Positions 26,626-64,000 of a DNA stretch of 64,000 nucleotides are shown piece after piece. The position numbers were made by a program, and so were the translations under genes. The notes beneath the pieces were generated by a model that saw only the letters and a program-made list of their open reading frames with translations, was not told the origin of the DNA and made no database searches. How positions within the stretch are numbered: the first letter of the stretch is position 1; every line of letters starts with the position of its first letter. Source of the DNA: Lentisphaeria bacterium (lineage in GTDB: Bacteria > Verrucomicrobiota > Lentisphaeria > JABSQK01 > JAWLHB01); the NCBI GenBank assembly GCA_041690595.1, contig JAWLHB010000037.1, positions 1-64,000 of the forward strand, in the 5' to 3' direction.

Positions 26626-26633
<8 letters not shown>

Positions 26634-46332: not shown

Positions 46333-46908
46333 CTACTCCTTGATCGCTTCGGCGTGCAGACGAATGTTCACCTCATGCGCGACGGCCGGACCCACGCCAG
46401 GGATATCCATGCCGTAGGTCATGCCGTAATCCATGCGATTGATGGTGACGGCGCCGTTGATGCCAATACGCACCTTACCGGTTGGATCCGTGATCGGCCC
46501 CTTTACCGTAACCGGCAGGCGAAGCTCTTTCGTCACGCCAAGAAGGGTGAAGTCGCCGATCAGGAGCTGCTTGTCACCGTCCGTTTCGATGCGTTTGGCG
46601 ACGAAGGTCATGGTAGGGTATTTCTCGACATCGAAGAAGTCGGCGGTGCGCAGGTGGTCGTCGCGTTTCTGGACATCCGTGTTGATCGACCCTGTCTGGA
46701 TGGTGAAGTCGGCGCTGGCGAGCTGATCGTTCTGGAGGGTGAGCGTACCGGCGAAGGAGGTGAAGCGCCCATGAACTTCCGTGAGGCCCATGTGGCCGAT
46801 CGAGAAGCCGATGTGACTGTGGGCCGGATCCAGGTTGTAGGTATCCTGTGCGGCAGCGTTCAGGCCGAGAGCGAGCATGGCAAGAGAGAGGGTGAGGGCA
46901 CGAATCAT
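46333..46908 (-). CDS. YceI family polyisoprenoid-binding protein
   Basis: Signal peptide; LDPAHS, RDDHLRTADFFDVEKYP, GDFTLLGVTK, INRMDYG. Confidence 0.93.
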   Translation of the reverse strand: MIRALTLSLAMLALGLNAAAQDTYNLDPAHSHIGFSIGHMGLTEVHGRFTSFAGTLTLQNDQLASADFTIQTGSINTDVQKRDDHLRTADFFDVEKYPTMTFVAKRIETDGDKQLLIGDFTLLGVTKELRLPVTVKGPITDPTGKVRIGINGAVTINRMDYGMTYGMDIPGVGPAVAHEVNIRLHAEAIKE

Positions 46909-46998: not shown

Positions 46999-49900
46999 TC
47001 AGTGGCTGGTCATGGTGAGCCGCTCGATGTCGAGATGGAGGTCGCCGGTGAGGGTGCGACTGGTGCGGAGTCCAAAGGCGGTGCCGGAGTGGGGGGTGTC
47101 GGGGAAGGTAGCCAGGAGGGCACCGCCGATGTGGAGGAGGGTCTGGTCGCCATCGAGGGTAAGCGAGAGTTCCTGCCAGCCGGGGGTGAAGGGCCACTCG
47201 GCGCGGGCGGTGGCGGTGCGTTTTCCATCGGTGTCGACGGCAAAGCGGAGGAGGCGGTAGCTGCCGGTGGCGGGATCGAGGGAGATTTCGATCATCTGGC
47301 CGTCGACGAGGTGTCCGCCGGGTGCTGGCGTGGCGGCGCGAGTGAGGATGGTGAAGAGGCTCCATGCCTTGTCGTCGGGGAGCGTGGAGGCGCGAAAACG
47401 GAGGTATAGGCGGGCATCTTCCGGGCCGGTCCACTTCTCCAGCCTGTAGGTGTGGCCATGGCCGCGGCGGGGGCGGGAATCGCCGCCGAGGCGCAGGAGG
47501 TGACCGGCATCGTCCGGATCGGCATGGACGATGGCTCCCGGAGAGAGGAAATCCCATTGCAGGGAGGGACCGTCGGTGAAGGCTTCATGGAAGAGAACGC
47601 CCTCTTCGCGGGGCTCGTTGCCGAGGCGGAGCAGCTCGATGGCATAGGGGGTACGCAAGGCGATTTCGAAATATTCATCCGTCATGGGATCGAGGAGCTG
47701 GCCGCTCTGAAGGTCGACGATGTCTTGGCGGGGGGTGAAGCCGATCACCTCCGGGTGGAGGCGGATCCGCGTGCGACCGGGGCTTCGCGACCAGCTCTGG
47801 AGGACCAGCAGGAGGCTGCGATCGCGGGGGCGGGCCAGCAACAGCCACTTGACGGATTCGTCGTCGATGGCGAGGGCGGGTTGGTCGGCCCAGTAGTTGT
47901 GAACGGCGACCTGATCGGTGCCATAGCCGAAGCCGCGGAGCGCCTTTTCGAAGGCAGCCATGGGCAGCCGGTAGTCGGTGGGGGAGCGCGGGATCTCGTG
48001 TACCGCAAGCATGCCCCACTCCCGTTTGCGGGCATAGATGGAGGTGGCGAGGTCGCCGGCGATCTCGGTCGGCGGCAGATCGGCGGGGTCGAGGTGGAAC
48101 TCTTCGGCGCGGAAGATGGGATGGACGAGGGTGGCGTAGTTGCCGCACTGGCGGCCGAGGGAGACGGCGCGCAGGTAGCCGGGTGGATACGGTTCGCGCG
48201 GATCGTGGTGCTCGGGGAAGGCCTGGCCGAAGCGGCTGGCGCTGTATTCATTGTCGAGCGACGTTGTCGCCCAGGCGAGGATGGGCAGGAGGTTGGTGTT
48301 GGTCATGTGCTGTACGAAGCGCATGGGCTCGCCGTGGATGCGGCTCCAGTGCTGCATGAGGTTCCAGGCGCGCTGGGCATAGGCGCGCTGCTCCCAGAGC
48401 GCCAGGGAGGGCTGGATGTTGCCGTCTTCCGTGCGATAGGCGCCGGAGGTCAGTGGGTTGGTCCGCGGGGTCAAGTAGGTATTGTCCCAATAGACGCCGA
48501 TGCCCCGCTTGTTCCACTCGTTCATGTACCAGGCGCCATAGTCGCGATAGCTGGGGCCGAAGCTGGAGCGGTAGGCGGGATTGACCGCGAGCCCCTCGCG
48601 GAAGATCTCCACGGTTGGCCATTGGCGGCGGGGGCTGAGCAGATCGCGGCTCCATTCGTCCTTGTAGACGTGCCACTCCGGCCGGTCGGTGGGGGCGGCC
48701 ATCTCCTCGAAATAGGTCTGTTGCGGACGACCGCTACGGGCGGCAAAGACGCTCTGGAGTCGAACCCAGTCGCCGGTGCCGCCCAAAGGGGGTATCCGAT
48801 GCGTGTCGCGGTAGGTCTTGAACCAGTCGACATCGACCTGGCCGGCATTCTGGAACTCGATGATCTTGTCGACGATCTCCCAGCGATCCTCGAAGGGGAA
48901 CTTGTAAGCGCAGCAGAGGCCGCCAAAGGGGACGACGGGCAGGCCGCCACCCGGCCGTTCGACCGTCCGCCAATCGTCCGGCATCGGTTTGACGGGGGAA
49001 GCCTGCAGGCCGAAGACCAGCTCGCGCTCGCCTTCGAGGATGGTCGGCAGGTTGACCAGATTGACCCGCAGGAGGATGGCGGCATCGGTGCGGACGATCT
49101 CCTGCAGGGGGCGGTCGCTCAGTTCCTTTTCGGTGATCCAGCCACGGTCGTTGGCGGCGAACCAGGCGATGCCGCGCTCGACTCCCCCCATCCAGACGTA
49201 GCCGGCAAAGGCGTTGCGCCATGGCTCCTTGCGCCGGGATTGCCAGACGAGACCGTCACCGGCGGGAATCGACCCGGCGTAGTTGCGGCGCAGGCTGCCG
49301 GTATCCTCATGCATCAGCGATGCCTCGTCCGGGCGCATGGGCACTTCGAGCCAGAGGCGGCGGATACCCGCTTCGGGCGAGACGCCCGGCCGCCAGCGCA
49401 TGGTGACCTTCATCATGCCGTCCATCTCGATCTCGGAGAGGGTCTCCACGTCGAGCGCGGGGCTGCTTGCCCGCGCGAGATGGCGGGCACGGTGGTCGGC
49501 GCTCTCCAGCCACTCGCCTTGCGAGAAGGTCCAGGCGCCTTCGTCGCCGGCCATGGTCTCATGGCGCAGGCGAATGGGCGCGGCGAGGAGTTCGCGGCCT
49601 TGCGCCCGAACCGAGTCCCAGAGGCCGAAGCCGTTCATGCGGTAGTCGCGCTGAACGATGCTGACGGTATCGTCGGCGACGCGCACGGGTTCGAAGGGGG
49701 GAAAGACCTCGTCGGTGAGACCGAGGGTGTTTCCTTTCCACGGGAACTCCTGGAGGCGGAAGCTCCATGGCTCGCTGAGCAGCCGCGTCTCGCCCGCCTC
49801 GGCAACGGCGAGGAGCTGGTAAATCCCATCGGGCAGGGCTCCTGTTTGCAGCTCGGCGAAGCTCTCCGGGTCGTGGGTCCAGGTGGCCTGCGTACGGTTG

Positions 49901-51489
49901 ATCAGGTCGCCCCGTTCGTTGCGCAGCTCGAGGAAGGGGGTGGCGCCGGGAGGCAGCTCGATGGCGGAGGAGAGCTGGTAGCGGATCAGGCGTGAGGAGG
50001 GAAAGCTCCAGGCTTCGAGGGTCAGCGGGGCGCTGCTGAGGCCGAAGCGCACCTTCTCCGGATCGACATAGCTCCAGTAGCGGTTGGCCGCCTCGTTGGC
50101 GCTCAGGCCGCGGGGATAGATGGCCAGTTCGTCGACGATCACGCCGCGCTGGGCCGACCCGTGTTGATTGAGTTTCAGGGAATCGAATGGGCTGTCGCTC
50201 TGGTCGGCCTTGTAGTTGGGGCCGCTTGCGGCCAGGCTGCCATCGACGTAGAGCGAGATGGAGCCAGGATTCCAGGAGAGGACGAGGTGGTACCAGCGTC
50301 CCGGATGGTAGAGGGTGCGTTGGGAATCCGCGTACGCCTGGCGCCGTCCATCGGCAGTGTGGGTGGTGATTCCGGCAAACTTGAAGACGCGCCCGGTGTG
50401 CGCGATGTGCATGGCAAAGCCGGCCGACGAAAAGAAGCCGACGCCGGAATCGGAGAGGTTGTTCCAACCTTTGGGTTTTGCCCACAGTTCGATGGCGCCA
50501 GCTCGCCAGTCGGTCAGTGGAAAGCCATCGATGAGGATGGGGCCGTCAGCCGCCATACCCTTCACGCCGGGAACGAAGTCGCCTTTGAAGTTGACGCGGT
50601 ACCGTTCGACGATCGCCGGATCGCGGGCCGCCAGTTCGGCGCCGGCCACGGGCTCCGTATCATCGTCGAAGGAGAAGGTGAGGCGAGGCTGGCTTTCGGG
50701 GGGGAGGACGCGCTCCGTGGGCAGCATGCCTTCGGCCGCGATGCGGTCGACCCATGGGGTGGGCTCCAACTCCCAGAAGGCGTGGATGTTGGTGTGAAGG
50801 CGGACCTCGTCGATCACACCGGCCAGCCCGTTCGCGCCATCGGGGGCGGCCCCGATCACCAGTGGCGCGGCCGCGTCGTCGGCATCGTCCTGCAGGCTGG
50901 CGCTGCCGACGGCGTCAACGGCCGCCAGTTCCCGGCCGTTGACGAAGATGGAGAGCTTGCCGTGCGTGAGCAGGCCGGTGCGAACAACGGCGGCGATGTG
51001 CGCCCATTCGCCGGGGCGAAGCGCGGCGGGGGAGGTGCGGGCCTGAAGGGGGCGGCCGGCGGGATTGGTGAATCGAGCCTGTATGGCGCCATCCGTCAGG
51101 ATCTCGATAGCGAAGCCGGTATTGCGCGCGGGATGGTGGTCGCGGGCGACCAGAGTTGCCGGCTGTTCGGCGCCGGGATAGCGGTCGAGCTTCACCCAGG
51201 CTTCGACCGAGAGGGCTCGACGGCGGGAATCGCTATCCAGGCGCAGGGGCGGCAGGTTGAGGGTGGCAAAGCCATTGCCGGCGAGCCGAAGCGCTCCGCC
51301 AAAGCGCCCGTCGTCGACCAGAGCGGCATCGCCTTGCAGGCTCCATGCCGGTGGCTCCATGGGTGGCTTCTGGAGGTCGAAATGGAGGAGCGCCGGGGTA
51401 CGGTCGTCCGGCATGTAGGGCTTCCAGAAGGCGACGTCGGTGGCGGTGGCGGTGGCGCAAAGGAGTGAGAGGAGGAGGGGGAATCTCAT
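46999..51489 (-). CDS. Secreted multidomain putative glycoside hydrolase (2x LamG/ConA plus DUF6067-like core)
   Basis: Signal peptide; GRFGGAL, SVEAWVK, WAHIA, IDEVR; GAIELW, WYHLV, VDELAIY; core GVYWDN and HMTN. Confidence 0.72.
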   Translation of the reverse strand: MRFPLLLSLLCATATATDVAFWKPYMPDDRTPALLHFDLQKPPMEPPAWSLQGDAALVDDGRFGGALRLAGNGFATLNLPPLRLDSDSRRRALSVEAWVKLDRYPGAEQPATLVARDHHPARNTGFAIEILTDGAIQARFTNPAGRPLQARTSPAALRPGEWAHIAAVVRTGLLTHGKLSIFVNGRELAAVDAVGSASLQDDADDAAAPLVIGAAPDGANGLAGVIDEVRLHTNIHAFWELEPTPWVDRIAAEGMLPTERVLPPESQPRLTFSFDDDTEPVAGAELAARDPAIVERYRVNFKGDFVPGVKGMAADGPILIDGFPLTDWRAGAIELWAKPKGWNNLSDSGVGFFSSAGFAMHIAHTGRVFKFAGITTHTADGRRQAYADSQRTLYHPGRWYHLVLSWNPGSISLYVDGSLAASGPNYKADQSDSPFDSLKLNQHGSAQRGVIVDELAIYPRGLSANEAANRYWSYVDPEKVRFGLSSAPLTLEAWSFPSSRLIRYQLSSAIELPPGATPFLELRNERGDLINRTQATWTHDPESFAELQTGALPDGIYQLLAVAEAGETRLLSEPWSFRLQEFPWKGNTLGLTDEVFPPFEPVRVADDTVSIVQRDYRMNGFGLWDSVRAQGRELLAAPIRLRHETMAGDEGAWTFSQGEWLESADHRARHLARASSPALDVETLSEIEMDGMMKVTMRWRPGVSPEAGIRRLWLEVPMRPDEASLMHEDTGSLRRNYAGSIPAGDGLVWQSRRKEPWRNAFAGYVWMGGVERGIAWFAANDRGWITEKELSDRPLQEIVRTDAAILLRVNLVNLPTILEGERELVFGLQASPVKPMPDDWRTVERPGGGLPVVPFGGLCCAYKFPFEDRWEIVDKIIEFQNAGQVDVDWFKTYRDTHRIPPLGGTGDWVRLQSVFAARSGRPQQTYFEEMAAPTDRPEWHVYKDEWSRDLLSPRRQWPTVEIFREGLAVNPAYRSSFGPSYRDYGAWYMNEWNKRGIGVYWDNTYLTPRTNPLTSGAYRTEDGNIQPSLALWEQRAYAQRAWNLMQHWSRIHGEPMRFVQHMTNTNLLPILAWATTSLDNEYSASRFGQAFPEHHDPREPYPPGYLRAVSLGRQCGNYATLVHPIFRAEEFHLDPADLPPTEIAGDLATSIYARKREWGMLAVHEIPRSPTDYRLPMAAFEKALRGFGYGTDQVAVHNYWADQPALAIDDESVKWLLLARPRDRSLLLVLQSWSRSPGRTRIRLHPEVIGFTPRQDIVDLQSGQLLDPMTDEYFEIALRTPYAIELLRLGNEPREEGVLFHEAFTDGPSLQWDFLSPGAIVHADPDDAGHLLRLGGDSRPRRGHGHTYRLEKWTGPEDARLYLRFRASTLPDDKAWSLFTILTRAATPAPGGHLVDGQMIEISLDPATGSYRLLRFAVDTDGKRTATARAEWPFTPGWQELSLTLDGDQTLLHIGGALLATFPDTPHSGTAFGLRTSRTLTGDLHLDIERLTMTSH

Positions 51490-54400
51490 CTGGCGGTCAC
51501 CGGTGTCTGGCGGGCATAGGGGGCGCCGTTCTGCTGGCGGCCGTTGGGCCAGGCATACTGGATGAAGAGGAAGCCTTCGATCGTGTTCGGTTCGAGGCGG
51601 GCACGCCAGGTCGGCAAGGCATCCGGAAGCTTGCGCAAGGCGGTGGAGGTACCCGTACGGCGACTCCGATCCGTACCGTAGTCGAGCAGATTCTGAATCT
51701 CGTATTCACCGTCGAGGTTGAAGCCGAGGCCAAACCAGTCGGGAGAGATGGTAGTGTTGAGGGGTTTGTCGCTCCAGTTGGCCAGGTAGAAGAGCATCCG
51801 GCGTTCCGACTTCCAAGCGATAATGCGCAGGTCGGGATGCTGATTGCCGAACCATCTGGGCGCCCGCCAGGGGGGAATCAGGGTCCAGCTCTTTTCTGGG
51901 TCGAGGGTGCGCCGATGGGCGAAGTGGAAGGCACCGAGGTGCTCGTCATTGCCATAGCCGGTGGTTCCGCCGGGAATAGCGCCTGCCGCACTGGTGATAC
52001 GCCACATGGCCAGCTCGGCCATGTCGGTCTTTCGCCGGTCTTCCGGGTCGGGGACACCCGGGGCCCACTCGTTGTTGAGCTGGATGGTGACGGGGACGCC
52101 CCAGGCCAGGCTGCGGTTGAGCATCATTTTCTCACCGAGGCGCGCGATGACGGGGGCGGGTCCTTCCGGGGGAATGGGCACGCGGCTGTGTTCGCCCTCG
52201 ATGCGTTCCTCGACGAAGGGATAGCAGTGGATGTACTGGTGGGGGCCGGAGGTGTGGAAGGTGTTGGCGGATGGCCGCCCAAGCTCGACCGGAACCATCG
52301 CCGCGCGCTTGAAGTAGTCGCGCAGGTCGAACATGGCAAACTCGGGCTGGATGCGGCCGTCGGGCAGCTCATAGCCGAGGCCGCTGTCCACATCGTGGCA
52401 GGGAGTCGAGACGGAGACACAGTCGAAATAGTAGGCGTCGATGCCGTAGGGGATGGTGAGCCATTTTTGCATGTGCCAGGCCATGAAGCGGAGGTAGGAC
52501 TCGGGGAACTCGCGCGTGTTCCAGTCGGGGAAGCCGGCGGGGACGTTACGCTTGGAGCCGGTCTCGATATGGATGGCGCCGTGATCGTAGCGGCGGCCGT
52601 TCGGGTCATATTCGGCGGTGGTGTGGTTGCGCGGCAGGGAAGCGAACTGCGACCACTTCTCGTAGTCCATGCAGTCGACGGTGCGGGCGGCGCCGCGGTT
52701 GGGGCCGCGGCCGGACTTGACCATGTCGACCATCGACCAGCCGCGCACCTTGTGCTCGGGGCTCTTGCCTTTGGTGGCGGGTGGATGGGGGCGGGCGGGG
52801 GTTGCCTCGAAGGCCATTTCGAAGGTACGCGCGGCGGTGAGCGTATAGGGTTCGCTGACGATGTTGAAGACGAGGTCGCGGCGGCTGCGATCCTCGCTGC
52901 CGATGACGGCGATGGCGGCTTTGGCCTCGGAGGGCACCCAGCCGCGATCGCCGTCGGCCCAGTAGACCAGGCCATTTTCGGGGGTGCCCAGCCAGAGCAT
53001 GGGAACGAAGGAGCCGACGGTCATGGGCACCTTGGCCATGGGGTCGGTGCTCTCCCACTGTACGCCGGGTGCCTGGTCGAGGAGCTTGCTGGTGTGCGGC
53101 TTGCCATTCATGACGGGATGCGTGACGCGCTCGGCCATGGCCCATTGCAGGGGGGCGATCAGGCGCATGCCGCGAATCTCTACCGGCGCCTCGCCCGCCG
53201 GCTGGTAGGTGACCGTCATCCTGAGCATGCCGTCGGGTTCGAAGCGGCTGGAGATGTCAACGCGCAGGCCGTTCAGCTCGAAGCCCCCTTTGCCGAGGAT
53301 GAAGGCTTCGTTCAGGGCGGTGACGACAAAGCCGTCGCCTTCGATCCGGTCTGAGCGCTGGGTGCCGTTGGCATCGTCGATCTCGATACGCATCGGCGAG
53401 ACGAGGTGATCGACCTCCTGCCAGCCGCCGATGATGACGGGCTGGCGGTCTGGGTCGGTGTTGGCCGTGATCCGGACGGGGAGGCCGGTGTCGGCCATGC
53501 GATAGGCGCGGTTCCAGCAGACGAGGGTGGCCGGCTCGGTCAGGTAGCGACATGGTTCGAACCAGGGGAGAAGGCGGTCGGAGGTGCCGAGGGTGCACGT
53601 CTCCCATGGATGATCTTCGAGGGTGAAGGCATAGGTGTCGGTGGCCAGGACCGCGCCTGCCTCGTCGAGGACCTCGACTCGGGCGGCGTAGGCGCCGGCG
53701 GGCAGCTTGCGGTCTTCGTGGGCGGTGGTGAAATACTCCACGAAGGGGGGCATGTCGAAGGTGGCGATGCTCTTTTCGCCGCCGTCGCGGATGGTGACTC
53801 TGGCGCGATGGGCGCGATCGCGTTCCGGCATGGTAAAGCTGTCGACATTGACGCGCAGGCGTTCGCGGGACTTATAGTAGGCGACCTCATAGTTGAACTT
53901 GCGGGGGTTGCCGGTGAACTCCCGTTCGGCGGCACGCTCCAGAGGCGACACTTCGATGCGGCGGCGGTAGTAGACCTCCGTGCCGGCGGCGTCGGTGACG
54001 GCCAACTCCAGCACATAGGGATCGAAGATCTTCTCCGCTCTGGGGGCTCGCTTTTCCTGCTCGGCCAGGCTCTTCTCGTGGGAGGTGATCACCATCTGGG
54101 AGGTCGGGTCGTAAGGAATGGTATGAAAGGTTTTGGATTCGCCGGGAGCGAGTGAGATGGTCTCGGTGGTGTGGGCAAGGAGGGTGGTGACCGGCGGCGG
54201 GTCGCCCCGCTTCTGCGAGCCTTCGCGATGAACGATGTAATGGAGCCTGGCGTCGAGGGGTTCGGAGGCGATGTTGCGAACGATCAGTTCCTGGCTGTTG
54301 GTGCCGTCGTAGAGGCCGGCGACGGTGCCCATGGAGACGGCGGCCGGGGAGGCGCCCAAGCGCATCTCGAGGGGGGCGCGGAAGGGAATGCGCAGCGCCG

Positions 54401-55058
54401 CCTGATCCCACGGATCATGCCAATTGCGGGCCAGCATCAGCCCCCAGGCTTCGCCGTCGCGATAGCCACCGGGCAGCATGGAGTCAAGGTCGACGGCGAA
54501 CTCCAGCTCCCAGAGACCATCGCGAAAGGTGCTGGCCGAGTCGACCTCGGTATTCCAGTCCCAGAAGGTCTGACCGATTTCGAGGGCTTCAAGCGCGTCG
54601 GTCACGGCTCCGCGGGCGTTGGCCACGAAGAGGTAAGGGCCGATCTCCTGGCCGGCATCCGCCTGGCGCCGGCGAGGCACGGTCAGGCGCATCTCGAGGG
54701 AACTGTCGGTGACCTGCGCCTGGTCGCGGCGGCGATCTCGATAGATGGGCAGTTCGCCGTCGCGCATTCGCAGGCGCATGGCGATGTAGAGCCTCTTGCC
54801 GTCGGCGCCAACCATGAAGGCCGCCTGGCGTGGGCTCAGGCCGGAGAGGTGGGTATGGACGCCGGCGAGCCCAATGGCCTGGTCGTATTCGCCATCGGCA
54901 ATCACGCCGTTGACGGTGGGTGGGGTCTGCATGCGTGGCACGCGGATCTGCTCGGGCAAGGCGAGGATAGCGGCGGCTTCAGGCGTCACGTCGGCGCTGG
55001 AAAAGGCGGAGATCCAGAGGGCGCAGCAGAGGGCGAGGGACGGAAGGGCTTTGGTCAT
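51486..55058 (-). CDS. Secreted multidomain putative glycoside hydrolase (CBM9-like plus DUF6067-like core)
   Basis: Real start MTKALPSLALCC (signal peptide); PTVNGVIADGEY, LYIAM, WELEFAV; core paralogous to the neighbour (AYYFDC, PDGRIQP, EGEH). Confidence 0.7.
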   Translation of the reverse strand: MTKALPSLALCCALWISAFSSADVTPEAAAILALPEQIRVPRMQTPPTVNGVIADGEYDQAIGLAGVHTHLSGLSPRQAAFMVGADGKRLYIAMRLRMRDGELPIYRDRRRDQAQVTDSSLEMRLTVPRRRQADAGQEIGPYLFVANARGAVTDALEALEIGQTFWDWNTEVDSASTFRDGLWELEFAVDLDSMLPGGYRDGEAWGLMLARNWHDPWDQAALRIPFRAPLEMRLGASPAAVSMGTVAGLYDGTNSQELIVRNIASEPLDARLHYIVHREGSQKRGDPPPVTTLLAHTTETISLAPGESKTFHTIPYDPTSQMVITSHEKSLAEQEKRAPRAEKIFDPYVLELAVTDAAGTEVYYRRRIEVSPLERAAEREFTGNPRKFNYEVAYYKSRERLRVNVDSFTMPERDRAHRARVTIRDGGEKSIATFDMPPFVEYFTTAHEDRKLPAGAYAARVEVLDEAGAVLATDTYAFTLEDHPWETCTLGTSDRLLPWFEPCRYLTEPATLVCWNRAYRMADTGLPVRITANTDPDRQPVIIGGWQEVDHLVSPMRIEIDDANGTQRSDRIEGDGFVVTALNEAFILGKGGFELNGLRVDISSRFEPDGMLRMTVTYQPAGEAPVEIRGMRLIAPLQWAMAERVTHPVMNGKPHTSKLLDQAPGVQWESTDPMAKVPMTVGSFVPMLWLGTPENGLVYWADGDRGWVPSEAKAAIAVIGSEDRSRRDLVFNIVSEPYTLTAARTFEMAFEATPARPHPPATKGKSPEHKVRGWSMVDMVKSGRGPNRGAARTVDCMDYEKWSQFASLPRNHTTAEYDPNGRRYDHGAIHIETGSKRNVPAGFPDWNTREFPESYLRFMAWHMQKWLTIPYGIDAYYFDCVSVSTPCHDVDSGLGYELPDGRIQPEFAMFDLRDYFKRAAMVPVELGRPSANTFHTSGPHQYIHCYPFVEERIEGEHSRVPIPPEGPAPVIARLGEKMMLNRSLAWGVPVTIQLNNEWAPGVPDPEDRRKTDMAELAMWRITSAAGAIPGGTTGYGNDEHLGAFHFAHRRTLDPEKSWTLIPPWRAPRWFGNQHPDLRIIAWKSERRMLFYLANWSDKPLNTTISPDWFGLGFNLDGEYEIQNLLDYGTDRSRRTGTSTALRKLPDALPTWRARLEPNTIEGFLFIQYAWPNGRQQNGAPYARQTPVTAR

Positions 55059-55101
55059 GGTCGAGTGTCCTTTACGTTTAGCCTGATTTGGAGGGGGGAG
55101 G

Positions 55102-55962
55102 TCAGTAGTTGTTGTCGGCCCAGAGCCATATTTTGCATGTCCATCCGGAGAAGCGATTTCGAGCCATGTAGGTGGCGTCGCCATAGCCTGGCCGGGGGAG
55201 CCAGCCAAGCGGCATGCGGGGGGGCTGCTTGGCGTTGCCTTCGAAATAGAGGACGTTGGGGCGGCCCTGGTGGTAGTTCTGGTCGGGGGCGATGCTGGCC
55301 TGTTCGCACATGGCGAAGCCGCGCTGCACCTCGCCTGTCGAGGTATTCTGCTTGCGCCCGAAGGAGATCTGGCGGACGGTGCCGTCGAGAAGCACCTGCG
55401 GGATGGTGCCGGAGCCCTGACCGAGATCGATGAGCTTCTGGTAGCCATGCTCGTTGGAGGCGGCGGCGAAGAAATAGGTGGGATTGGAGCCGGTGAACTT
55501 TCCCGCGTTGCGGCAGAGGTCGGTGAAGTGGTTGGTGCCGCCCATGAGGTAGATGTCCGGCAGGCGTTTGGCCAGGTAGTCGGCGGAGATACGACCGTTG
55601 GGGGTGGACGGGCAATAGAGGTTGTTTGTAGAGGCTTCCTGATCGATTTCACCGCTGGCCAGCAGGCAGCCCAGGGCGTTGGCGATCTTGCCGGTATCAT
55701 CGGTATAGAAGCCGCGGGAGCCGCCCCGCATGAGCCAGCCGTCCTGATTATCCGTGTAGCTGAAGATGTGCATGCCGAGTTGACGGATGTTTCCGAGGCA
55801 ATTGCTGGAGCGGGCCTTCTCGCGGGCCTGCGTCAAGGCGGGGAGAAGCATGGAGGCGAGCACGGCGATAATTGCGATAACGACTAGAAGTTCGATCAAG
55901 GTAAAGGTCTGGAGGGGCAGTCGGGTCGATGTCCAGCGGTTGATGGGTCTGGCATTCATCAT
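55102..55962 (-). CDS. Prepilin-type N-terminal cleavage/methylation protein (DUF1559 / H-X9-DG-like)
   Basis: [50 protein letters not shown]. Confidence 0.92.
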
Positions 55963-56999
55963 GCGGGTCCTTTCCTGATGATCAGGGTTGGCGGTATGTA
56001 GACGACGCTGTCGTCCGCCGGGGCAAAGGCTCGGGCGAGAGCCCGCGGCCAGAGGGTGGCGAAGGGCAGGTGAACGGAGGAAAACTCGTGGCCGGGCAGG
56101 CGCGAATAGTGTTGATCGTAGAAGCCGACGCGATCCAGTTCCGCCGCCGCTACCGGCGCGACATGTGCGAGAGCCTGGAAGAAGCGGTGGACGAGGTAGT
56201 CGGCCTGGCCGAAGACCGCGGTGGCCTGGCTCTCGCGGAGCAGCTCAGTCAACATGGCGTGGGGATAGTCGTGCAAGGCATGCACCAGATGGAGATCCTC
56301 GGCTGGGGCGAGTCCGACGGCCTCAGCGGCCTGCTCGATGCGCGTTCGCAGATACGGCTGGGGTTGCTGGTGATTGGTCAGCATCAGGATGCGGCGATGG
56401 CCGCGCTCGCGCAGGTAGTTCAGCGCCTGGACATAGCCGCCCAGATAATCGAAGAGCACGGCGTGGCGGGGGGTCATGCCGTGCCATTCCCAACGGTTGA
56501 CGACACAACACGGCACCCGGCCCACCAGGGTGAGCAGTTCATCCAGGTCGAAGCGGCGAGCTTCGACATCGAGCAGCGCCAGGTTCGGTTGCCGCTCCAG
56601 CGAGTCGCGCATGATGCGCTGCCAGTTTGTCTCCGCCGACAGTGCCCCGATCATCGGCACCACGCTGCCTTCCCCCGTCGCCTGAAGCAGCGACTCGAAG
56701 TAGCCTTCGTGGTGGCCTCGTCGAACGTCGGTGAAAAGGGCGGCCAGACGGCTCGCGCCCAATGGCAGATCCGGGTTTACAAAGGTGCCGCTGCGATCGC
56801 GCCGGACGATGAGGCGCTCTCGCTCCAGCACGGCGCAGGCGGATCTGACCACGGAAAAGCTGGCGCCAAAGTGTTCGCCCAGCTCCCGCATTCCCAGCAT
56901 CCGGGCGCCGGGGAGGAGCGCGCCGCTGGTGATCTGCGCCTTGATGCCATCAATCACCTGCTGCGTCTTGGTGGGGGCGGTGGTCAGACTGTGCTGCAT
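55959..56999 (-). CDS. GntR-family regulator with LacI-type ligand-binding domain
   Basis: wHTH I.SG.L.PG.RM..RELG.HFG.S..VR...GTFV; C-terminal [27 protein letters not shown]. Confidence 0.9.
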
Positions 57000-57059: not shown

Positions 57060-57261
57060 GCGCAAATCGAAGAAAAAGAAGCAGATGGGGGCCTAAGGCC
57101 GCACTGAATTGGCGTCGGTGTTGCAATGCCAGCGCTTCGCCTCATTGTAAACCTTGCTCATATGCATCACAACCGGCATGGCGACGATGCCGGATGTCGA
57201 ACAGAAGCGTACGCGTGAAGCAAAAATGCTTGGGCCAGAATTGGAGATCTGACTTTTTTCG

Positions 57262-58062: not shown

Positions 58063-58251
58063 TGGTATCTTTCGGGTGGTTGTAATTGTGGTGCTTGGGG
58101 ATATGTTTAGCGCTTTGTCAGAGTCGCTTGCGACTCAATGGGTTGTGATGGTGAAGGTTGCTGGTTGGCAGTCACGGGTGACCGTGGCTGTATCGCCAGG
58201 CGGGGAGGAGCACCTTTTCATCCGCACGGTTCCTTCCAAACTGGTGCTGGA

Positions 58252-59841
58252 ATGATCTTTTTTCGCGAAAAACGGTGCATGAGTTTCTCCTGGGACAGCC
58301 AGGGCGGGTACTATGGTGTGCTGGCGCAGCGGCGTGGCGAACGGGTGGCGATTCGCCGCACCTGGCATGAGCAGGCGAGCGATCAGGCGACGATCAGCGA
58401 GATGCTCGCCAAGGGCATCGCGACGCTGGGCGAGAATCGGGACATCCCCCTGATTGTCGGCGGCAACGTGAGCCGCGTCTTCTTCCATGAGCTGGTCCTC
58501 CCGGCGATGTCGCCGGAGAACCTCGCGCGGGCGCTCGAATTTGAGATTGCCAAGTTGACCCCCTCGCGGCTGGAGGATATTCACTGGAATTATCGCGATG
58601 TTGGCCCCGCGGAGGGAGAACAGCGGCTGATACGGCTCCTCTGCATGCCGGCTGATGAATGGCAGAGGTGGATAGAGGGCGCCAGCGGCCTTGGGCGTGG
58701 CGTCGATGTTTTCATGCCTGCCAGCGCGGCCCTCGACCCGATTCTCGCCGAACGCCAAGTCTGTCTCAGCCCCGAGGGTGACGATGCCCTCTATCTGCTG
58801 GAGCCACGCGACGGGGGCGGGCGAAGCGTTCGCCTGGTGAAGTCGCCGATGGAGGTTCAGGATGCGTTTGGCCTCGGTCCCCGGCCGTTGGCTTGCGAGC
58901 GACTGACGTTGGGCGAGCTTGACTCTGCAAGCCCGGAGCAAGCGCGGGGATTTGCGCCAGCGGTGGTGCTTGCCATGTACGGGCTGAGCCGTCGCTTTGC
59001 GAGCGATCGCAAGCAGACGGCTGATGTACCGCGCGAATTGCGGCCTCGGCGTCATGGCATGCTGAAGGCGGTGGCGGCCATGCTGGTTCTCTACCTGATT
59101 GCGGCCCTGGCATTCATGACCATCCGCTCCATACATCGCAGCAATCGCCAGATCGGTGAATGGAAGAATTACGACCGACAGTTGAAGGCGGAGTTGGCGC
59201 GGTACAGTGCCGGTGGTGACGTGGACGCACGTCTGGTTGAGCTGAAGACGGCTCTCCTGCAGGCGATTCTCTCCCGCAAATCAGTGCCGGATGCTTTGGT
59301 GGAGCTTACCACCTCCCTTGATCACCGTGTTTTTGCTCGACGGTTGAGCTGGAGCGACGGGAAACTTAATGTCTACCTGACGGCAAAGACCGATAGCCCT
59401 GACACGCTCCTGGCGCTCAGTCAATCCGATTTTTTTGACAAATATACCCTTGTGAAACGCGAAAGTACCGGCAATATGCTGACCTACCAGGTCGATCTCG
59501 AGCAGAAGGATTATTTCACCCGGGGTGAAGAAGTCCTGAATCAGCAGCGCAGCGGTGAGGCGGGCATTCTTGTGCCCCCACCACGAAAGATCCAGAAGTC
59601 GCCGCCACGCTCGCGTACGCCATCAACATCCTTCCCGGATGGGGGCGACCTGCCAGACTTGGACAATCCGCCCCGGCTTCCGGTCGGCGACGATCCATTC
59701 CGGTTACCGAGTGGGGGCTTTGGCAGCTTGCCGCTGCCGCCTGCCCAGTTGCCCGCGGAAATGGCACCATTGGGGGATCCACCGCTATCCGATCTGGAGA
59801 AGATGCCGATTCCGGAAGATACGCCGCGGGAGGAGCGCTGA
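58252..59841 (+). CDS. T2SS GspL / PilM-PilN-like inner-membrane platform protein with Pro-rich tail
   Basis: LPAMS.ENL..AL.FEI..LTP..LED..W.Y; one TM then coiled coil and L.ELT..L; first gene before the secretin. Confidence 0.65.
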   Translation: MIFFREKRCMSFSWDSQGGYYGVLAQRRGERVAIRRTWHEQASDQATISEMLAKGIATLGENRDIPLIVGGNVSRVFFHELVLPAMSPENLARALEFEIAKLTPSRLEDIHWNYRDVGPAEGEQRLIRLLCMPADEWQRWIEGASGLGRGVDVFMPASAALDPILAERQVCLSPEGDDALYLLEPRDGGGRSVRLVKSPMEVQDAFGLGPRPLACERLTLGELDSASPEQARGFAPAVVLAMYGLSRRFASDRKQTADVPRELRPRRHGMLKAVAAMLVLYLIAALAFMTIRSIHRSNRQIGEWKNYDRQLKAELARYSAGGDVDARLVELKTALLQAILSRKSVPDALVELTTSLDHRVFARRLSWSDGKLNVYLTAKTDSPDTLLALSQSDFFDKYTLVKRESTGNMLTYQVDLEQKDYFTRGEEVLNQQRSGEAGILVPPPRKIQKSPPRSRTPSTSFPDGGDLPDLDNPPRLPVGDDPFRLPSGGFGSLPLPPAQLPAEMAPLGDPPLSDLEKMPIPEDTPREER

Positions 59842-59843
59842 TC

Positions 59844-60434
59844 ATGGCCAGTGAGACCACATCCGGTCGCCGCTATCTGCTCTATGGCCTGCTCATTGTC
59901 GGCCTGGGGATCGGCTATCTCTTCATGTTTTCGAATATGGGCTTTCCAAGCATCCCGTTTGGCGGCGACATCGCCAGTGAGTCCTCCAGAGCAGAGGCGA
60001 CGCGTGCCGAACTGGTGAAGCAGCAGAAGCTCTATCGCCATCGGCTGGAAGAGCTGGCGCAGGTGCGCCAGTTGGCGTCGTTCGTCTATCCTGCCGATAC
60101 CGATGCCAATGCGATCGTGCGCCAGATCGAGAAGCTGGCCTATGATTCCGGAATGAGTTATTCCAGTCTGCGCCGCATCGGTGGGCGGAGCGAGGAGAAC
60201 AGCTTCCTGCGGACGGAGGAGGTCACCATCAATGGCCAGGTCGACATCAAGCAGTTGGCGATCTTTCTGAAGGAGATCGAGAACAGCCGGCCGCTGCTGG
60301 AGTGGAGCATGTTCAGCGTAACGCCGCGGCCGAATCAGCCGTCTCCGAACCTGATCTACATATCGGGCCGCATCAAGGCATACCTGCTGACCGACGAGGC
60401 CGGAGCACTGCTCTCAGGGGAGGTCATGCAATGA
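59844..60434 (+). CDS. T2SS GspM / PilO-like protein
   Basis: N-terminal TM, coiled coil, QL..FL.EIENS.PLL; position in operon. Confidence 0.65.
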   Translation: MASETTSGRRYLLYGLLIVGLGIGYLFMFSNMGFPSIPFGGDIASESSRAEATRAELVKQQKLYRHRLEELAQVRQLASFVYPADTDANAIVRQIEKLAYDSGMSYSSLRRIGGRSEENSFLRTEEVTINGQVDIKQLAIFLKEIENSRPLLEWSMFSVTPRPNQPSPNLIYISGRIKAYLLTDEAGALLSGEVMQ

Positions 60435-61435
60435 AGCGATTTCTGCTGATTTTCAACGTGGTGTTGCTGGCGGTTGCGATCGGTGTGACGGCTCGCCTGT
60501 TGCGGCCGGAGTCGTCGAATGCGCTGGCCGGGATGGATGTGCCGGAAGTTGACTTGGTGAATAACCCGATCGAGCGGTCGGATGTGCGGCTGCCCTGGAG
60601 CCCGATCCGTGAGGAAACGGTGCTGATGATTGCCAACGAGAATCTCTTCAGCGAAGGGCGTGCCTATATTGAACCTGTGAGCGATACCGAGCCCGCTGAT
60701 GCGACGGAGGCGGCCGAAGAGCCACCGAAGCCTACTGAAGAGTACGAACTGGTCGGTGTGGTTCGTGTTGGCGGGCGGGCGGTGGCAAGCATGATTGTGC
60801 GCAGTTCCACCGTTGCCGAACAGCAGCCGGCACCCGCCATGAGGCGTCGTGGAGGACCCGGAGGGCTGCTCCGCCAGCAGGAACAGCCGCTGCCGGCGGC
60901 AGGTGCGGATGGGGCAAGCAAGAAGGATATCTATGCTGTCGGCGATGCTGTTGGGGCTCTTGGTTATACGTTGCGCGAAATCGGCTCGGACCATGTGATC
61001 CTGGTCAAGACCCGAGATGACGGCAGCGAGGAGGAAGAGGAGCTGCGCGTCGACATGGATCTCGATGATGACAGCAGCAAGGAGCGACAGCAGGCTGCCC
61101 TTGCCGATGAAGAGAAACGCTTGGAAGATTCCCGACGCGCCGTCATGATTCGTCCGCTGGATGAAAACCTGCAACGGGGCGCTGATGGTGAATTGACCGA
61201 TATTGTACCGGCCCAGCCGCCTTCTGGAAGACTGGAAGATTTTGTCGATGGAGCCTTGGAGACTGAAGTAGAGAACGCGGCACGCCGCCCCTTTCGCGGC
61301 GGTCGCCGCGGATCCGCTGATGCCGGCGGCAGACCCGGTGTGGGCGAAGCGCCCGCCGCTCCCGAACCCACTCGTGAAGGGGATGCTCCCGGCATTCCGC
61401 CGCCCATACCCACACCACCTGGCCTTCCCCAGTGA
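60431..61435 (+). CDS. T2SS GspC/PilP-like protein
   Basis: N-terminal TM, NLFSEGR, ELVGVV, YAVGD.V..YTL.EI..DHVIL; ATGA overlap; directly upstream of the secretin. Confidence 0.55.
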   Translation: MKRFLLIFNVVLLAVAIGVTARLLRPESSNALAGMDVPEVDLVNNPIERSDVRLPWSPIREETVLMIANENLFSEGRAYIEPVSDTEPADATEAAEEPPKPTEEYELVGVVRVGGRAVASMIVRSSTVAEQQPAPAMRRRGGPGGLLRQQEQPLPAAGADGASKKDIYAVGDAVGALGYTLREIGSDHVILVKTRDDGSEEEEELRVDMDLDDDSSKERQQAALADEEKRLEDSRRAVMIRPLDENLQRGADGELTDIVPAQPPSGRLEDFVDGALETEVENAARRPFRGGRRGSADAGGRPGVGEAPAAPEPTREGDAPGIPPPIPTPPGLPQ

Positions 61436-63699
61436 ACGCAATAAGGATGACACTGCTTATGACTATAATGAAGCGCCTCGCGCCGATACTATCGCGCCTT
61501 CTGCTACCGACGGTCACTCTCTGCCTGTTGCTGGTGAGCCATGGCTGCAAGAGTCTGGAGGAGAGACAGGCGGAAGAATATGCTGAAGCTGACGTGGCGG
61601 ATATCCTGCGCATCGATGCTGGCGTAAGTAACCGCGAGGCAAAAAGCAGCAGAGGAGCCAGCGCTGAAACGCCGATCACGAATCTGAAGCCGAGCTATGA
61701 GGCGGAATCGGCAGCCGGTACCTTGCCGACGCGCAACCTGAGCGAGCGACCGGGCAGCGGCATCGAGCTGCCATATAATTTTGCGCTGGACATGATCAAG
61801 GGACTGGAGAATCCCGAGGAAATGATCGAGGTGACGGTGAAGTTCGACAACGACGAGATCCCCTACGTGGTGAAGCAGATGGCGCTGACGCTTGGCTTTG
61901 AGTTTTACCTGGATCCCGCCGTCTCCGGCACCGTGACCTTCTCGATCGACAGTCAGATGACGAGGGCGCAGGTTTGGGAGCTTTTTGCCAAGATTCTCTG
62001 GTTCAACGACGCTTACATCACGAGGGATCATGGTTTCGTGCGGATCATGAGCATGGAGAAGATGCCGCGCGAACAGCGACTGCTGGCCAAGGACGCGCCA
62101 CGCACCAATATCGCTGTCGAGCTGGTGCGCTTCAGTGAGACGCTGGCCTCGGATATGGCGCCACTTATCGCCCCCTACCTCTCTCCGAAGGCGACCATTA
62201 CGCCGGTGCCGCACCTGAATGCGCTGCTGATCGTCGATACCCCGGCGAACGTGGACAAGCTGCAGGAGCTGGTGAGTCGTCTCGACCGCATGGGCGAAAC
62301 CACCTGGCCCCAGGACAGTATCGGCGTGCACTACATTTCGCCGACGGTGATCGCGGAAGAACTCAAGCAGGTGCTCCCGATTCTCGGCTTCAGGGTGAGC
62401 GTCGGTGAGAAGTCGGACAATCTGAGCATTCGGCTGATGCCGATCGATCGGCTGCAGGCACTGGTGGTGACGGCACCGCATATCGACATCATTCAGGAGA
62501 TTCGGCGCTGGGTGCAGGTCCTGGATCGCCAGGATACGGGTGAGGAAGAGCAGATCTATTTCTATGAGGCCAAGCACACCAAGGCGGAGGATCTTGCCGA
62601 TGCGGTGAATTTCTTTTTCAATTCGTCGGTGGGGCGCAGTCGTCGCCCGACAGCATCTGGCGGTGACGATGCCGCCACGTCAACCGCTGAGCCGGCGGCA
62701 ACCAGCCGTACCGGCGGTGCGGGGAGAGGCACCGAGTCGACCTCGATTCGCGAGAGCGTATTCGAGATTCCCGCGAGTGTGTTTGTCGATGGGAAGCACA
62801 ATCGCATGGTCATTCGAACGACCCCGCGCGCCCATGCCACCATGCTGGCGCTGCTGCAGAGCCTGGATACTCCCCCCTTCCAGGTCCTCATCCAGATGTC
62901 GATCGCGGAGATTCAGCTCAACGAAGACACGCGCCTCGGCTTCAAGTACAGCGCTCTGTCGAAGATACAGGGCGGGGAGTATGAGTTTCTCAGCCGCTTT
63001 GCATATGGCGACGATCTCAGCGCCACCGCCTCTCCTGGCCTCAATCTGGTGCTCAACAAGGTCTCGGATCCCACCAAGGTCTTCGGCTTCATCGAAGCCG
63101 TCGCGGGCAAGGGCAACACGCGGGTGCTCTTCTCGCCGCAGGTTCTGGCGATCAGCGATGAAGAGGCGATCATCAACGTGGGTGACAAGGTGCCGATCAT
63201 CACCCAGGAAAACAATGCGACGGACTCGACCAATATCACCCGTGAGATCCAGTATCAGGACACCGGTATCATCATGACGGTGACCCCGCACGTCACGGCC
63301 AGCCGCATGGTCACACTCAAGATCAAGCAGGAAGTCTCCGATGCCGTCACCACGACTTCATCCGATATCGATTCACCCACCATCCAGACGCGTATTGTCC
63401 AGACTTCCCTGATCGTCGACGATAACTCGACAATCCTCCTCGGCGGCCTTATCCGCACGCGTGACATCAAGAACGAAACCGGCATTCCCTTTCTCAAGGA
63501 CATTCCCGGCGTCGGCAACCTTTTCGCGCTCAATGTTCGGGAGAATCAGCGGCTGGAACTGCTTATCCTGATGACGGTGAATGTCATCGAGATGGATGCC
63601 GATGTGGAGCGCCTGGCGCGTCGTTACAAGAGTGCCTTGCAGGCGATCAAGGAGCAACTCGGGCCGGCGAATCTCGAGCGGCAGGTGGATGCGCCATGA
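61432..63699 (+). CDS. gspD: Type II secretion secretin
   Basis: N0 plus three N repeats (NALLIVD, QALVVT, NRMVIRT); QVLIQ..IAEI, A.INVGDKVP, YQDTGI.M.VTP, GIPFLKDIP; start may be 61447 or 61468. Confidence 0.92.
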   Translation: MNAIRMTLLMTIMKRLAPILSRLLLPTVTLCLLLVSHGCKSLEERQAEEYAEADVADILRIDAGVSNREAKSSRGASAETPITNLKPSYEAESAAGTLPTRNLSERPGSGIELPYNFALDMIKGLENPEEMIEVTVKFDNDEIPYVVKQMALTLGFEFYLDPAVSGTVTFSIDSQMTRAQVWELFAKILWFNDAYITRDHGFVRIMSMEKMPREQRLLAKDAPRTNIAVELVRFSETLASDMAPLIAPYLSPKATITPVPHLNALLIVDTPANVDKLQELVSRLDRMGETTWPQDSIGVHYISPTVIAEELKQVLPILGFRVSVGEKSDNLSIRLMPIDRLQALVVTAPHIDIIQEIRRWVQVLDRQDTGEEEQIYFYEAKHTKAEDLADAVNFFFNSSVGRSRRPTASGGDDAATSTAEPAATSRTGGAGRGTESTSIRESVFEIPASVFVDGKHNRMVIRTTPRAHATMLALLQSLDTPPFQVLIQMSIAEIQLNEDTRLGFKYSALSKIQGGEYEFLSRFAYGDDLSATASPGLNLVLNKVSDPTKVFGFIEAVAGKGNTRVLFSPQVLAISDEEAIINVGDKVPIITQENNATDSTNITREIQYQDTGIIMTVTPHVTASRMVTLKIKQEVSDAVTTTSSDIDSPTIQTRIVQTSLIVDDNSTILLGGLIRTRDIKNETGIPFLKDIPGVGNLFALNVRENQRLELLILMTVNVIEMDADVERLARRYKSALQAIKEQLGPANLERQVDAP

Positions 63700-64000
63700 T
63701 CGACGGAGCAGAGGAACGCGTGGTGGAATCGACCATGACAGCGAGCGCCAAGAGCAGCTCCGGACGAGAGCCGGATGGCTACATCACCATGGCGAAGCCT
63801 GCCCAGACTTGTGACGTGACGCGGATTGCGGTCGCGGTGGCGGAGCGCTTGGGCCAGTCGCTTGGCGACAAGGATCTGCTGGCGGATTTCGAGCCGGAGG
63901 TGGAGTGGAAGCTGGCCGCGCAGGGACGCCTTTCCGAGACGGACATCCTGCAGGCGTACAGCGCTGCCTCGGGGCTGACGGTGATCGAGGACGAGGATGT
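63696..64000 (+). CDS. Probable T2SS ATPase GspE/PilB N-terminus (truncated at window edge)
   Basis: ATGA overlap with gspD; open to the edge; L...G.LSE.DIL.A helix motif; ATPase motifs not in window. Confidence 0.55.
   Translation, partial: MIDGAEERVVESTMTASAKSSSGREPDGYITMAKPAQTCDVTRIAVAVAERLGQSLGDKDLLADFEPEVEWKLAAQGRLSETDILQAYSAASGLTVIEDED

Follow-up and report, generated by a model that had tools for sequence, protein, structure and literature searches.

A recurrent cassette of regulator, pilin-like and enzyme genes as a possible polysaccharide-utilisation operon in a SusD-free Lentisphaeria bacterium

The stretch of Lentisphaeria DNA analysed here (the window, 64,000 nucleotides, C37:1-64000 of an 8.1-Mb genome in 99 contigs that is 97% complete) contains four co-directional genes on the minus strand (46999-56999) in the order REG > PIL > BIG3 > BIG4, encoding a sugar-type regulator, a pilin-like protein and two large proteins related to DUF6067 (Table 1). 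The nearest relatives of the source genome are labelled Victivallales or Lentisphaerota. We assign a probability of about one half to the reading that this locus belongs to a set of modular polysaccharide-utilisation operons that respond to sugar and replace polysaccharide utilisation loci (PULs) of the SusC/SusD type in this member of the Planctomycetes-Verrucomicrobia-Chlamydiae (PVC) group. The architecture of the locus, its enrichment in the genome and the carbohydrate-enzyme content of its sister cassettes were observed directly, and a structural model gives BIG4 a glycosidase-type fold. About sixty cassettes with nearly identical organisation are present in this one SusD-free PVC bacterium.

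Recurrence of the Cassette in the Genome

An iterated search with a hidden Markov model seeded with REG identified 132 genes of this regulator type, and a regular expression for the pilin N terminus identified 188 pilin-like genes with a median length of 248 aa (a phmmer search with PIL likewise returned 188 open reading frames (ORFs)). A pilin-like gene follows directly on the same strand after 63 of the 132 regulators. By chance 4.3 such pairs are expected from an analytic estimate, and 1000 shuffles of the gene labels gave a mean of 2.7 and a maximum of 10; the adjacency is enriched roughly 20-fold, more than chance. An exact four-nucleotide ATGA overlap is found in 18/63 pairs of regulator and pilin-like gene as compared with 6/52 pairs of pilin-like gene and enzyme gene, with median gaps of 5 and 23 nt, respectively. 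The pilin-like genes are also associated with large genes: a same-strand gene of at least 700 aa begins within 250 nt after 74 of the 188, as compared with 439 of the 5536 other genes (odds ratio 7.5).

The genes downstream of the pilin-like gene were retrieved for 50 of the 63 cassettes. Of the 13 omitted, 11 lack a same-strand gene in the 250 nt that follow, one is the cassette of the window itself and one is a fragment on contig C64. Up to three genes per cassette were taken, 105 in total, and domains were accepted at E<=1e-5. Glycoside hydrolase (GH), polysaccharide lyase (PL), carbohydrate esterase (CE), carbohydrate-binding module (CBM) or sulfatase domains are present in 43 of the 105, and 29 of the 50 cassettes hold at least one such gene. 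The families comprise GH2, 4, 20, 32, 38, 42, 71, 78, 95, 116 and 123, GHL6, PL8, heparinase II/III, CBM9, AXE1, sulfatase and PF19543; the other downstream genes have DUF4838 only (8), other domains (15) or no domain (39). The control set was 100 random genes in 20 random five-gene regions, of which six have carbohydrate-enzyme domains and one has DUF4838 only; pilin-like genes lie upstream of three of the seven. Carbohydrate-enzyme domains are therefore found in 41% of the downstream genes versus 6% of the random ones, a ratio of ~7 (Fisher odds ratio 10.9, p = 2.4e-9). The initial annotation had made its interpretation depend on an excess of prepilin genes beside regulators and carbohydrate-active enzymes (CAZymes), and both comparisons show that excess. 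It had also described the unit as free of SusC and SusD, with no TonB receptor, SusD or ATP-binding cassette (ABC) transporter. Domain scans of the four proteins and their neighbours agree, and the description extends to the genome: SusD (PF07980) has no match in the 97% complete sequence, four TonB-dependent receptors are encoded, none on the window's contig, and no transporter domain was detected at the same threshold in the 105 downstream genes.

Three further features were noted in the retrieved regions. DUF4838 is the commonest single family after the pilin-like genes (13 of the 105), often has a C-terminal GH2_N-like domain and often occurs in tandem copies; the loci are L009, L019, L023, L026, L028, L042, L044, L049 and L129. 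URO-D-like genes (uroporphyrinogen decarboxylase fold), which are unexpected for sugar operons, lie inside three of the 50 CAZyme cassettes (coordinates of URO-D-like genes are L006:4-1068, L013:2050-3084, L017:6119-7195 and L141:545-1732). The random control region L135 (C4:110720-116631) contains a gene for a Gp13-like major capsid protein (E 2e-72) and is probably part of a prophage.

The Regulator

REG has a GntR domain at residues 12-74 (46.6 bits, cut-off 27) and a Peripla_BP_3 domain at residues 194-342 (29.1 bits, cut-off 26.5). With its N-terminal helix-turn-helix (HTH) and C-terminal effector domain of the periplasmic-binding-protein fold, it is a GntR/LacI hybrid one-component sugar regulator, as the initial annotation had proposed. 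The same composition is found in the other cassettes, where all 52 regulators scanned have an HTH (GntR in 38 and LacI in 14) and 45 of the 52 have a Peripla_BP_3 or Peripla_BP_1 domain.

The Pilin-like Protein and Its Family

PIL begins with a 19-residue leader that ends in Thr and continues into a helix of the FTLIELLVV type. This N-terminal hydrophobic α1 helix with Glu at +5 is present as in type IV pilins and the pseudopilins of type II secretion systems (T2SS), and solved pilins in the Protein Data Bank (PDB) align with PIL solely over this region (residues 20 to ~75). PIL scores 20.8 bits with TIGR02532, over the cut-off of 16.3, and 20.3 bits with N_methyl, slightly under the cut-off of 21.2; its nearest language-model clusters are N_methyl/DUF1559 (0.98). 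The C-terminal region contains H-X9-EG, a variant of H-X9-DG, and TIGR04294 was not reported at E<=0.01; strict H-X9-DG is found near the C terminus in 72/188 pilin-like genes. Among the cassette pilins aligned with PIL, N_methyl is matched by 51/56 and SBP_bac_10/DUF1559 (PF07596) by 44/56, and the conserved features of the head are Cys55, Gln61, Tyr69, Cys117-Pro118, His231 and Gly242. The cytoplasmic leader of the pilin-like proteins comprises ~6-35 residues.

Cleavage by prepilin peptidase requires Gly at position -1, as is established for type IV pilins. In PIL this residue, which precedes FTLIE (window 55906-55908), is Thr, and Gly is found in 15 of the 188 pilin-like genes and replaced in the other 173, most commonly by Arg (57/188), with Ser, Thr, Ala, Pro, His and Cys also frequent. 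The short pseudopilins encoded beside GspE and secretin genes retain the sequence (K)KG/FT (146 aa on contig C53; 172 and 189 aa on C28). In relatives from other genomes, the residue is K, C, S, V or N in Victivallales and Lentisphaerota records, as compared with G or A in Planctomycetota. The genome has a single Peptidase_A24 gene, 6 secretins and about 8 full-length GspE/PilB ATPases. Because residue -1 is Thr in PIL and Gly is retained in so few of its paralogs, the name pseudopilin used in the initial annotation is doubtful and PIL is probably not a classical pseudopilin, although the broader assignment as a prepilin-type protein is upheld by the helix and the TIGR02532 match. The replacement of Gly(-1) by Thr also suggests that PIL is probably neither cleaved by prepilin peptidase nor polymerised into a filament; given the requirement for Gly in cleavage, most of the pilin-like proteins would remain anchored in the membrane through the pilin helix.

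Matches to pilin profiles range from 3 to at least 150 per genome in 12 genomes of the same order. At C2:127681-130726 and C1:82163-84424, three to four pilin-like genes stand in tandem behind a regulator and ahead of one large gene, so that some cassettes hold several paralogs.

Domains and Predicted Fold of BIG3 and BIG4

Both large proteins are related to PF19543 (GH123_N, formerly DUF6067). BIG4 scores 41.9 bits against the gathering cut-off of 22; BIG3, at 21.0 bits, is just under it and shares every invariant column of a 68-sequence alignment of the family. The two cores are distant paralogs with 25% identity. BIG4 has relatives at up to 58% identity that are named "DUF6067 family protein" or "glycoside hydrolase domain-containing protein" and come from Victivallales, Kiritimatiellia, Phycisphaerae, Planctomycetota, Armatimonadota and Ratteibacteria. 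BIG3 has just three relatives in a search of 5.8 billion proteins, at 24-25% identity, all carrying PF19543. The DUF6067 family itself is broad (137 relatives at E<=1e-3 and 552 stretches confirmed in the locus search), and the source genome has ~31 paralogs, 11 of them directly 3' of a pilin-like gene. The initial annotation had given both proteins lectin or CBM modules. This is clear for BIG4, which matches Laminin_G_3 over two stretches (E 1.2e-34). For BIG3 the evidence is a weak pairwise alignment of residues 46-212 with the CBM9_1 region in a paralog (E 5e-5), and Pfam gives no hit at E<=0.5. The CBM9-like family seeded from BIG3 has 71 members in the genome, 24 of which stand directly behind a pilin-like gene.

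Searches of the PDB sequences with BIG3, BIG4 and the DUF6067 alignment gave nothing meaningful (best E 0.79, 0.046 and 0.09, respectively). An AlphaFold model of BIG4 residues 560-1300, computed with 68 sequences, has a predicted local distance difference test score (pLDDT) of 94.4 and a predicted template modelling score (pTM) of 0.93. In the model, the core comprises a β-supersandwich, a (β/α)8 barrel and a C-terminal β-sandwich. The top Foldseek matches of the whole core are GH36 α-galactosidases and galactosaminidase, GH97 and GH101, with E ~1e-13 and template modelling (TM) scores of ~0.35-0.4. The barrel taken separately matches GH27 best (7.7e-8), and also GH36, GH13, GH66 and GH168; the CD98/4F2hc heavy chains, which are non-catalytic GH13-like proteins, are among the matches. 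The language-model neighbours of BIG4 outside PF19543 are DUF6259, Melibiase/GH31 and GH66. At the level of fold, BIG4 thus has a barrel with flanking β domains like that of clan GH-D, and the alignment extends this to BIG3.

Residues D1002, R1040, H1061, E1081 and W1200 (BIG4 numbering) are invariant across the 68 sequences, including BIG3. The two acidic residues, D1002 and E1081, are located at or just past the ends of barrel strands in the DSSP string and are, by that position, candidate catalytic residues; in clan GH-D the Asp nucleophile and the Asp acid/base stand at the ends of barrel strands 4 and 6. The model thus gives the BIG4 core a glycosidase-type fold with conserved candidate catalytic residues that matches no characterised family. 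The initial annotation had named BIG3 and BIG4 two giant glycosidases and had looked to a glycosidase fold in them; the fold of BIG4 agrees with this, but the name is overstated, since they are DUF6067 proteins with putative activity that fall outside GH123.

Membership in GH123 was considered and rejected. The catalytic domain PF13320 is absent from BIG3 and BIG4 at E<=0.01, though two other proteins of the genome match it; alignment of the DUF6067 profile with these two GH123_cat proteins by hhalign gave a probability of 0.5%, the target being a thin two-sequence profile; and GH123 appears in none of the top match lists.

Related Loci in Other PVC Genomes

We compared 78 loci around DUF6067 relatives in other genomes. 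A pilin-like ORF directly follows 11 of the 25 ORFs of the regulator family in these loci, and the 11 are labelled Victivallales, Lentisphaerota, Phycisphaerales/Phycisphaeraceae, "Planctomycetes bacterium" and "uncultured bacterium". The complete order of regulator, pilin-like, BIG3-like and BIG4-like gene recurs in two Victivallales records (L060 and L078), and in a third locus (L092) the BIG4 orthologue precedes the BIG3-like gene behind the regulator and pilin-like gene. A BIG3-like gene is immediately upstream of a BIG4-like gene also in Kiritimatiellia, Lentisphaeraceae, Ratteibacteria and Brocadiia records. Because the adjacency recurs across these records, BIG3 and BIG4 look like a conserved pair. 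Neither REG nor PIL homologues are near most of the Planctomycetia loci.

Proposed Mechanism and Alternative Explanations

If the locus is a polysaccharide-utilisation operon, REG would sense a sugar breakdown product in the cytoplasm and control transcription of all four genes from the 262-bp region upstream of it. BIG3 and BIG4 would leave the cytoplasm through Sec, be targeted by their Laminin_G and CBM9-like modules and share one glycan as substrate; their barrel would resemble that of clan GH-D, with D1002 and E1081 as candidate catalytic residues. PIL would sit in the inner membrane, held by its pilin-type helix, and expose the variable head of ~190 aa outside the cytoplasm. It would contribute a non-catalytic function specific to the cassette, most likely binding of the cassette's glycan or oligosaccharides in the manner of SusD or of the bindosome proteins of Sulfolobus. 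On this reading PIL would be a cassette-specific membrane-anchored accessory, with glycan binding as the favoured role. A wider proposal can be put forward tentatively and as a whole: that the DUF1559/H-X9-DG proteins of the PVC group act as glycan-capture modules with substrate specificity, one for each sugar-regulated CAZyme operon, and are displayed from the inner membrane or by machines of the T2SS or type IV pilus kind; that they are a bacterial counterpart of the bindosome and explain at the molecular level how Planctomycetota, Lentisphaerota and Verrucomicrobiota take up polysaccharide independently of SusCD, by fibres or through the periplasm; and that DUF6067 is a new GH family.

Several results weigh against the polysaccharide-utilisation reading. 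The 5724 genes were called with a crude home-made caller based on the G+C content of third codon positions (GC3), and the regular expression that defined the pilin set demanded Glu at +5. A search for sequencing runs listed five DNA runs with small shares (0.05-0.11) and no RNA run. PIL itself has no PF07596 match at E<=0.01 and falls narrowly below the N_methyl cut-off, and searches of the PDB gave no solved or annotated relative of its head. The 39 downstream genes with no Pfam domain make up more than a third of those examined. The fold matches of BIG4 are scattered over many GH families at 6-13% identity and root mean square deviations of 4-6 Å with no family standing out, so that no activity or substrate can be assigned to it, and the literature searched, which leaves most subscription journals outside its coverage, contains no paper on DUF6067 and hence no reported activity of PF19543. 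Finally, 11 of the 63 pairs of regulator and pilin-like gene have no same-strand gene within 250 nt downstream, and the closest paralog of the REG-PIL pair (on contig C25, with a pilin 62% identical) is followed by a different, unannotated gene of 489 aa. These lone pairs and the C25 case indicate a closer tie of the pilin to the regulator than to any one enzyme. The divergence of the regulators is barely correlated with that of the pilin heads (Spearman 0.07; Mantel 57/1000; nearest paralogs coincide in 4/62). The co-divergence test is weak and separates none of the readings. Taken with the lone pairs and the C25 case, the near-zero correlation speaks against an enzyme-specific role of the pilin and keeps alive the two alternatives in which PIL serves secretion or the regulator.

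In the first of these, PIL is a secretion-specificity factor, a substrate-dedicated pseudopilin-like adaptor that passes Sec-exported enzymes to a T2SS-type machine or caps its pseudopilus. The conserved α1 helix with Glu+5, the signal peptides of the co-encoded enzymes, the secretins and GspE/PilB ATPases of the genome and the large genes that follow so many of the pilin-like genes are all consistent with this. A T2SS-like operon 1.1 kb from the cassette was taken at first as a further point, but its proximity was dropped as evidence: with 63 cassettes and ~6 secretin loci, we estimate that chance alone would give a neighbour of this kind. Most of the family has lost Gly(-1), which the short pseudopilins on the side of the machinery retain (KKG/FTLIE), and this argues against a secretion adaptor, as do the 11 pairs with no downstream enzyme and the fact that no T2SS is known to use substrate-specific pseudopilins. 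We regard this explanation as unlikely.

A second alternative, to which we give a similarly low weight, concerns the enzymes. BIG3 and BIG4 would not be hydrolases. They would be built on a glycosidase-like scaffold that has degenerated, and would serve as glycan-binding or surface proteins with no catalysis, or as enzymes of some other class. Neither protein matches any characterised GH family in sequence, GH123_cat is absent, non-catalytic CD98/4F2hc is found among the barrel matches, and BIG3 has very few relatives, all of them distant. However, both the acidic and the basic residues at the barrel strand ends are invariant in the 68 sequences, which come from several phyla, the DUF6067 family is wide and conserved, and bona fide GH families fill the same slot in the sister cassettes.

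The third alternative takes REG and PIL as the real functional unit, with PIL the main target or partner of the regulator (for example, a membrane modulator or a reporter of envelope glycans) and the enzymes as optional cargo. It would account for the tighter coupling of regulator to pilin-like gene than of pilin-like gene to enzyme in both gap length and ATGA overlaps, for the lone pairs and for the pairs in other PVC genomes, and two recent duplications (C25/C37 and a pair on C20) preserved REG and PIL but not the enzymes. Against it, the regulator has its own sugar-binding domain, which makes an extra sensor unnecessary, the short cytoplasmic leader of the pilin offers little contact surface, and regulator and pilin head diverge almost independently. 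We consider it distinctly improbable. That the adjacency is a functionless by-product of the abundance of pilin-like genes is scarcely credible, for although 188 such genes in 8.1 Mb make some chance adjacency unavoidable, the 63 pairs far exceed the permutation maximum, order and strand are conserved with ATGA overlaps, and the pattern recurs in other PVC genomes.

The initial annotation had proposed that the pilin is a substrate-specific adaptor, either a glycan-binding tip or a secretion-specificity factor, that occupies the slot of SusCD. As a whole its interpretation is partly supported, through the enrichment and the fold of BIG4, the adaptor role itself being putative.

Organisation and Surroundings of the Locus

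The coordinates of the features are listed in Table 1. The initial annotation had described a tightly coupled four-gene unit with four-nucleotide overlaps, and the coordinates and lengths agree with those found here, including the lengths of the two large signal-peptide-bearing proteins; the ATGA stop/start overlaps at the REG/PIL and BIG3/BIG4 junctions were read directly from the letters. PIL and BIG3 are separated by 43 nt. The BIG3 start was placed at an ATG behind an AAGGA Shine-Dalgarno-like site, as the longest ORF extends to 55700 and overlaps PIL, and the signal peptides of BIG3 and BIG4 were assigned by eye from the sequence. The promoter-like site 57172-57144, one of three seen in the scan where 1.6 were expected, sits in the 262-bp region that separates REG from a divergent birA-like gene. 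Because a separate promoter-like site belongs to the next minus-strand gene, which is YceI-like (46333-46908, E 3e-45), that gene was excluded from the unit. A terminator scan gave 4 sites versus 5.9 expected, which is not above chance. The G+C content of the cassette is 0.657 as compared with 0.615 for the genome and ~0.60 for the flanks; BIG4, at 0.668, is above the 90th percentile of genes, and the pilin-like genes as a class are G+C-poor with a median of 0.586.

Table 1. Positions in the window of the four cassette genes and of features within and upstream of them
Feature	Positions	Strand	Description
REG	55959..56999	-	346 aa, GntR winged-helix HTH and LacI-type Peripla_BP_3; GGAGA 9 nt 5' of ATG
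PIL	55102..55962	-	286 aa, prepilin-like, DUF1559/H-X9-DG kind
BIG3	51486..55058	-	1190 aa, predicted signal peptide, divergent PF19543/DUF6067 member, CBM9-like N-terminal module
BIG4	46999..51489	-	1496 aa, predicted signal peptide, two Laminin_G_3 modules and DUF6067 core
PIL hydrophobic segment, class-III-type (pilin α1), residues 20-43, Glu at +5	55834..55905	-	
BIG3 CBM9-like module, residues 46-212	54423..54923	-	
BIG4 Laminin_G_3, best stretch, residues 90-232	50794..51222	-	
BIG4 core, residues 560-1300: β-supersandwich, (β/α)8 barrel, C-terminal β-sandwich (model)	47590..49812	-	
Promoter-like site TTGTGA-17-TACAAT	57144..57172	-	9/12 consensus positions; consensus match only

The T2SS-like operon lies on the plus strand at 58138-64000 and continues to C37:65423. 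It encodes a 567-aa protein, weak matches to T2SSM_b (E 7e-4) and T2SSC (E 7e-4), a GspD-type secretin (61432-63699) and a GspE-type ATPase that begins at 63696. Elsewhere in the window, a 4264-aa protein with PKD, Calx-beta, FG-GAP, cadherin-like and CHB_HEX_C domains is encoded at 29072-41866 (minus strand) and is probably a giant surface adhesin, and a cluster for an Mrp-type Na+/H+ antiporter with MnhG, Proton_antipo_M, MbhD/E and Oxidored_q2 domains is located at 21389-27120 (plus strand).

Novelty and Significance

GntR/LacI regulators, DUF1559/H-X9-DG proteins and PF19543 are already catalogued. No description of an operon of regulator, pilin-like and CAZyme genes, of a lineage-wide loss of Gly(-1) or of a GH-like fold for DUF6067 was found in the literature searched, and because most subscription journals are outside its coverage this absence is not proof; where DUF1559 is paired with glycoside hydrolases there, it is merely listed as an expanded family. 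One source describes the CAZyme clusters of Planctomycetota as lacking functional characterisation (PMC11131199).

Although they lack SusCD, PVC bacteria play a major part in the breakdown of complex and sulfated polysaccharides, and their genomes hold tens to hundreds of DUF1559 pilin-like genes that have no known role. The link of these genes to sugar regulators and CAZymes makes a testable hypothesis. It also provides a simple rule by which operons for polysaccharide utilisation can be located in these phyla, a pilin-like gene behind a GntR/LacI regulator, and the rule flags the large proteins that lack Pfam domains as candidate new carbohydrate enzymes. The same rule points to DUF6067 as a likely glycosidase family that has yet to be characterised.

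Comparison with Known Systems

The modelled core of BIG4 has the same order of three domains as the clan GH-D-like enzymes of GH36, GH27 and GH31 and as GH97, and Melibiase and GH31 are among its language-model neighbours. It differs from them in its very low sequence identity, TM scores of ~0.4 and lack of any sequence or profile match, and its family is catalogued solely as PF19543. PIL resembles T2SS pseudopilins and type IV pilins such as GspG and PilA in its FTLIELLVV helix with Glu+5 and its TIGR02532 match. Unlike them, it has Thr at -1, a length of 286 aa, a head of the DUF1559 type and H-X9-EG, and it is encoded behind a sugar regulator, and not in a secretion operon, as one of 188 paralogs.

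Two systems in which pilin-like structures meet carbohydrates offer functional parallels. In Planctomycetes, dextran binds pili-like fibres of crateriform structures (PMC5394234, available part), which is likewise SusCD-independent polysaccharide uptake involving pili-like fibres in the PVC clade. That paper does not identify the subunits of the fibres, and neither it nor the present analysis connects them with DUF1559 genes; in the present genome, filament assembly is made less likely by the loss of Gly(-1). The bindosome (Bas system) of Sulfolobus is described, in the part of the source available, as containing sugar-binding proteins with class III pilin-type signal peptides (PMC3047682). 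As in the cassettes, N termini of the type IV pilin kind serve sugar use instead of a classical pilus, and substrate-specific paralogs are numerous (PMC3047682). The bindosome is archaeal, however, and its components are true substrate-binding proteins of ABC transporters that are encoded with the transporters and cleaved by PibD, whereas the cassettes have no transporter in cis, the DUF1559 head is unrelated by any test run and the cleavage Gly is mostly lost.

With respect to the SusC/SusD PULs of Bacteroidota, the cassette differs in having no SusC/SusD pair and no transporter domain in the cassette genes examined, in its cytoplasmic one-component GntR/LacI hybrid regulator, in place of a hybrid two-component system or an extracytoplasmic function (ECF) sigma/anti-sigma pair, and in using a pilin-like protein as the accessory. 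The two share a substrate-dedicated regulator beside co-oriented genes for secreted CAZymes and a non-catalytic accessory, and in both many paralogous loci with differing enzyme families are present in one genome.

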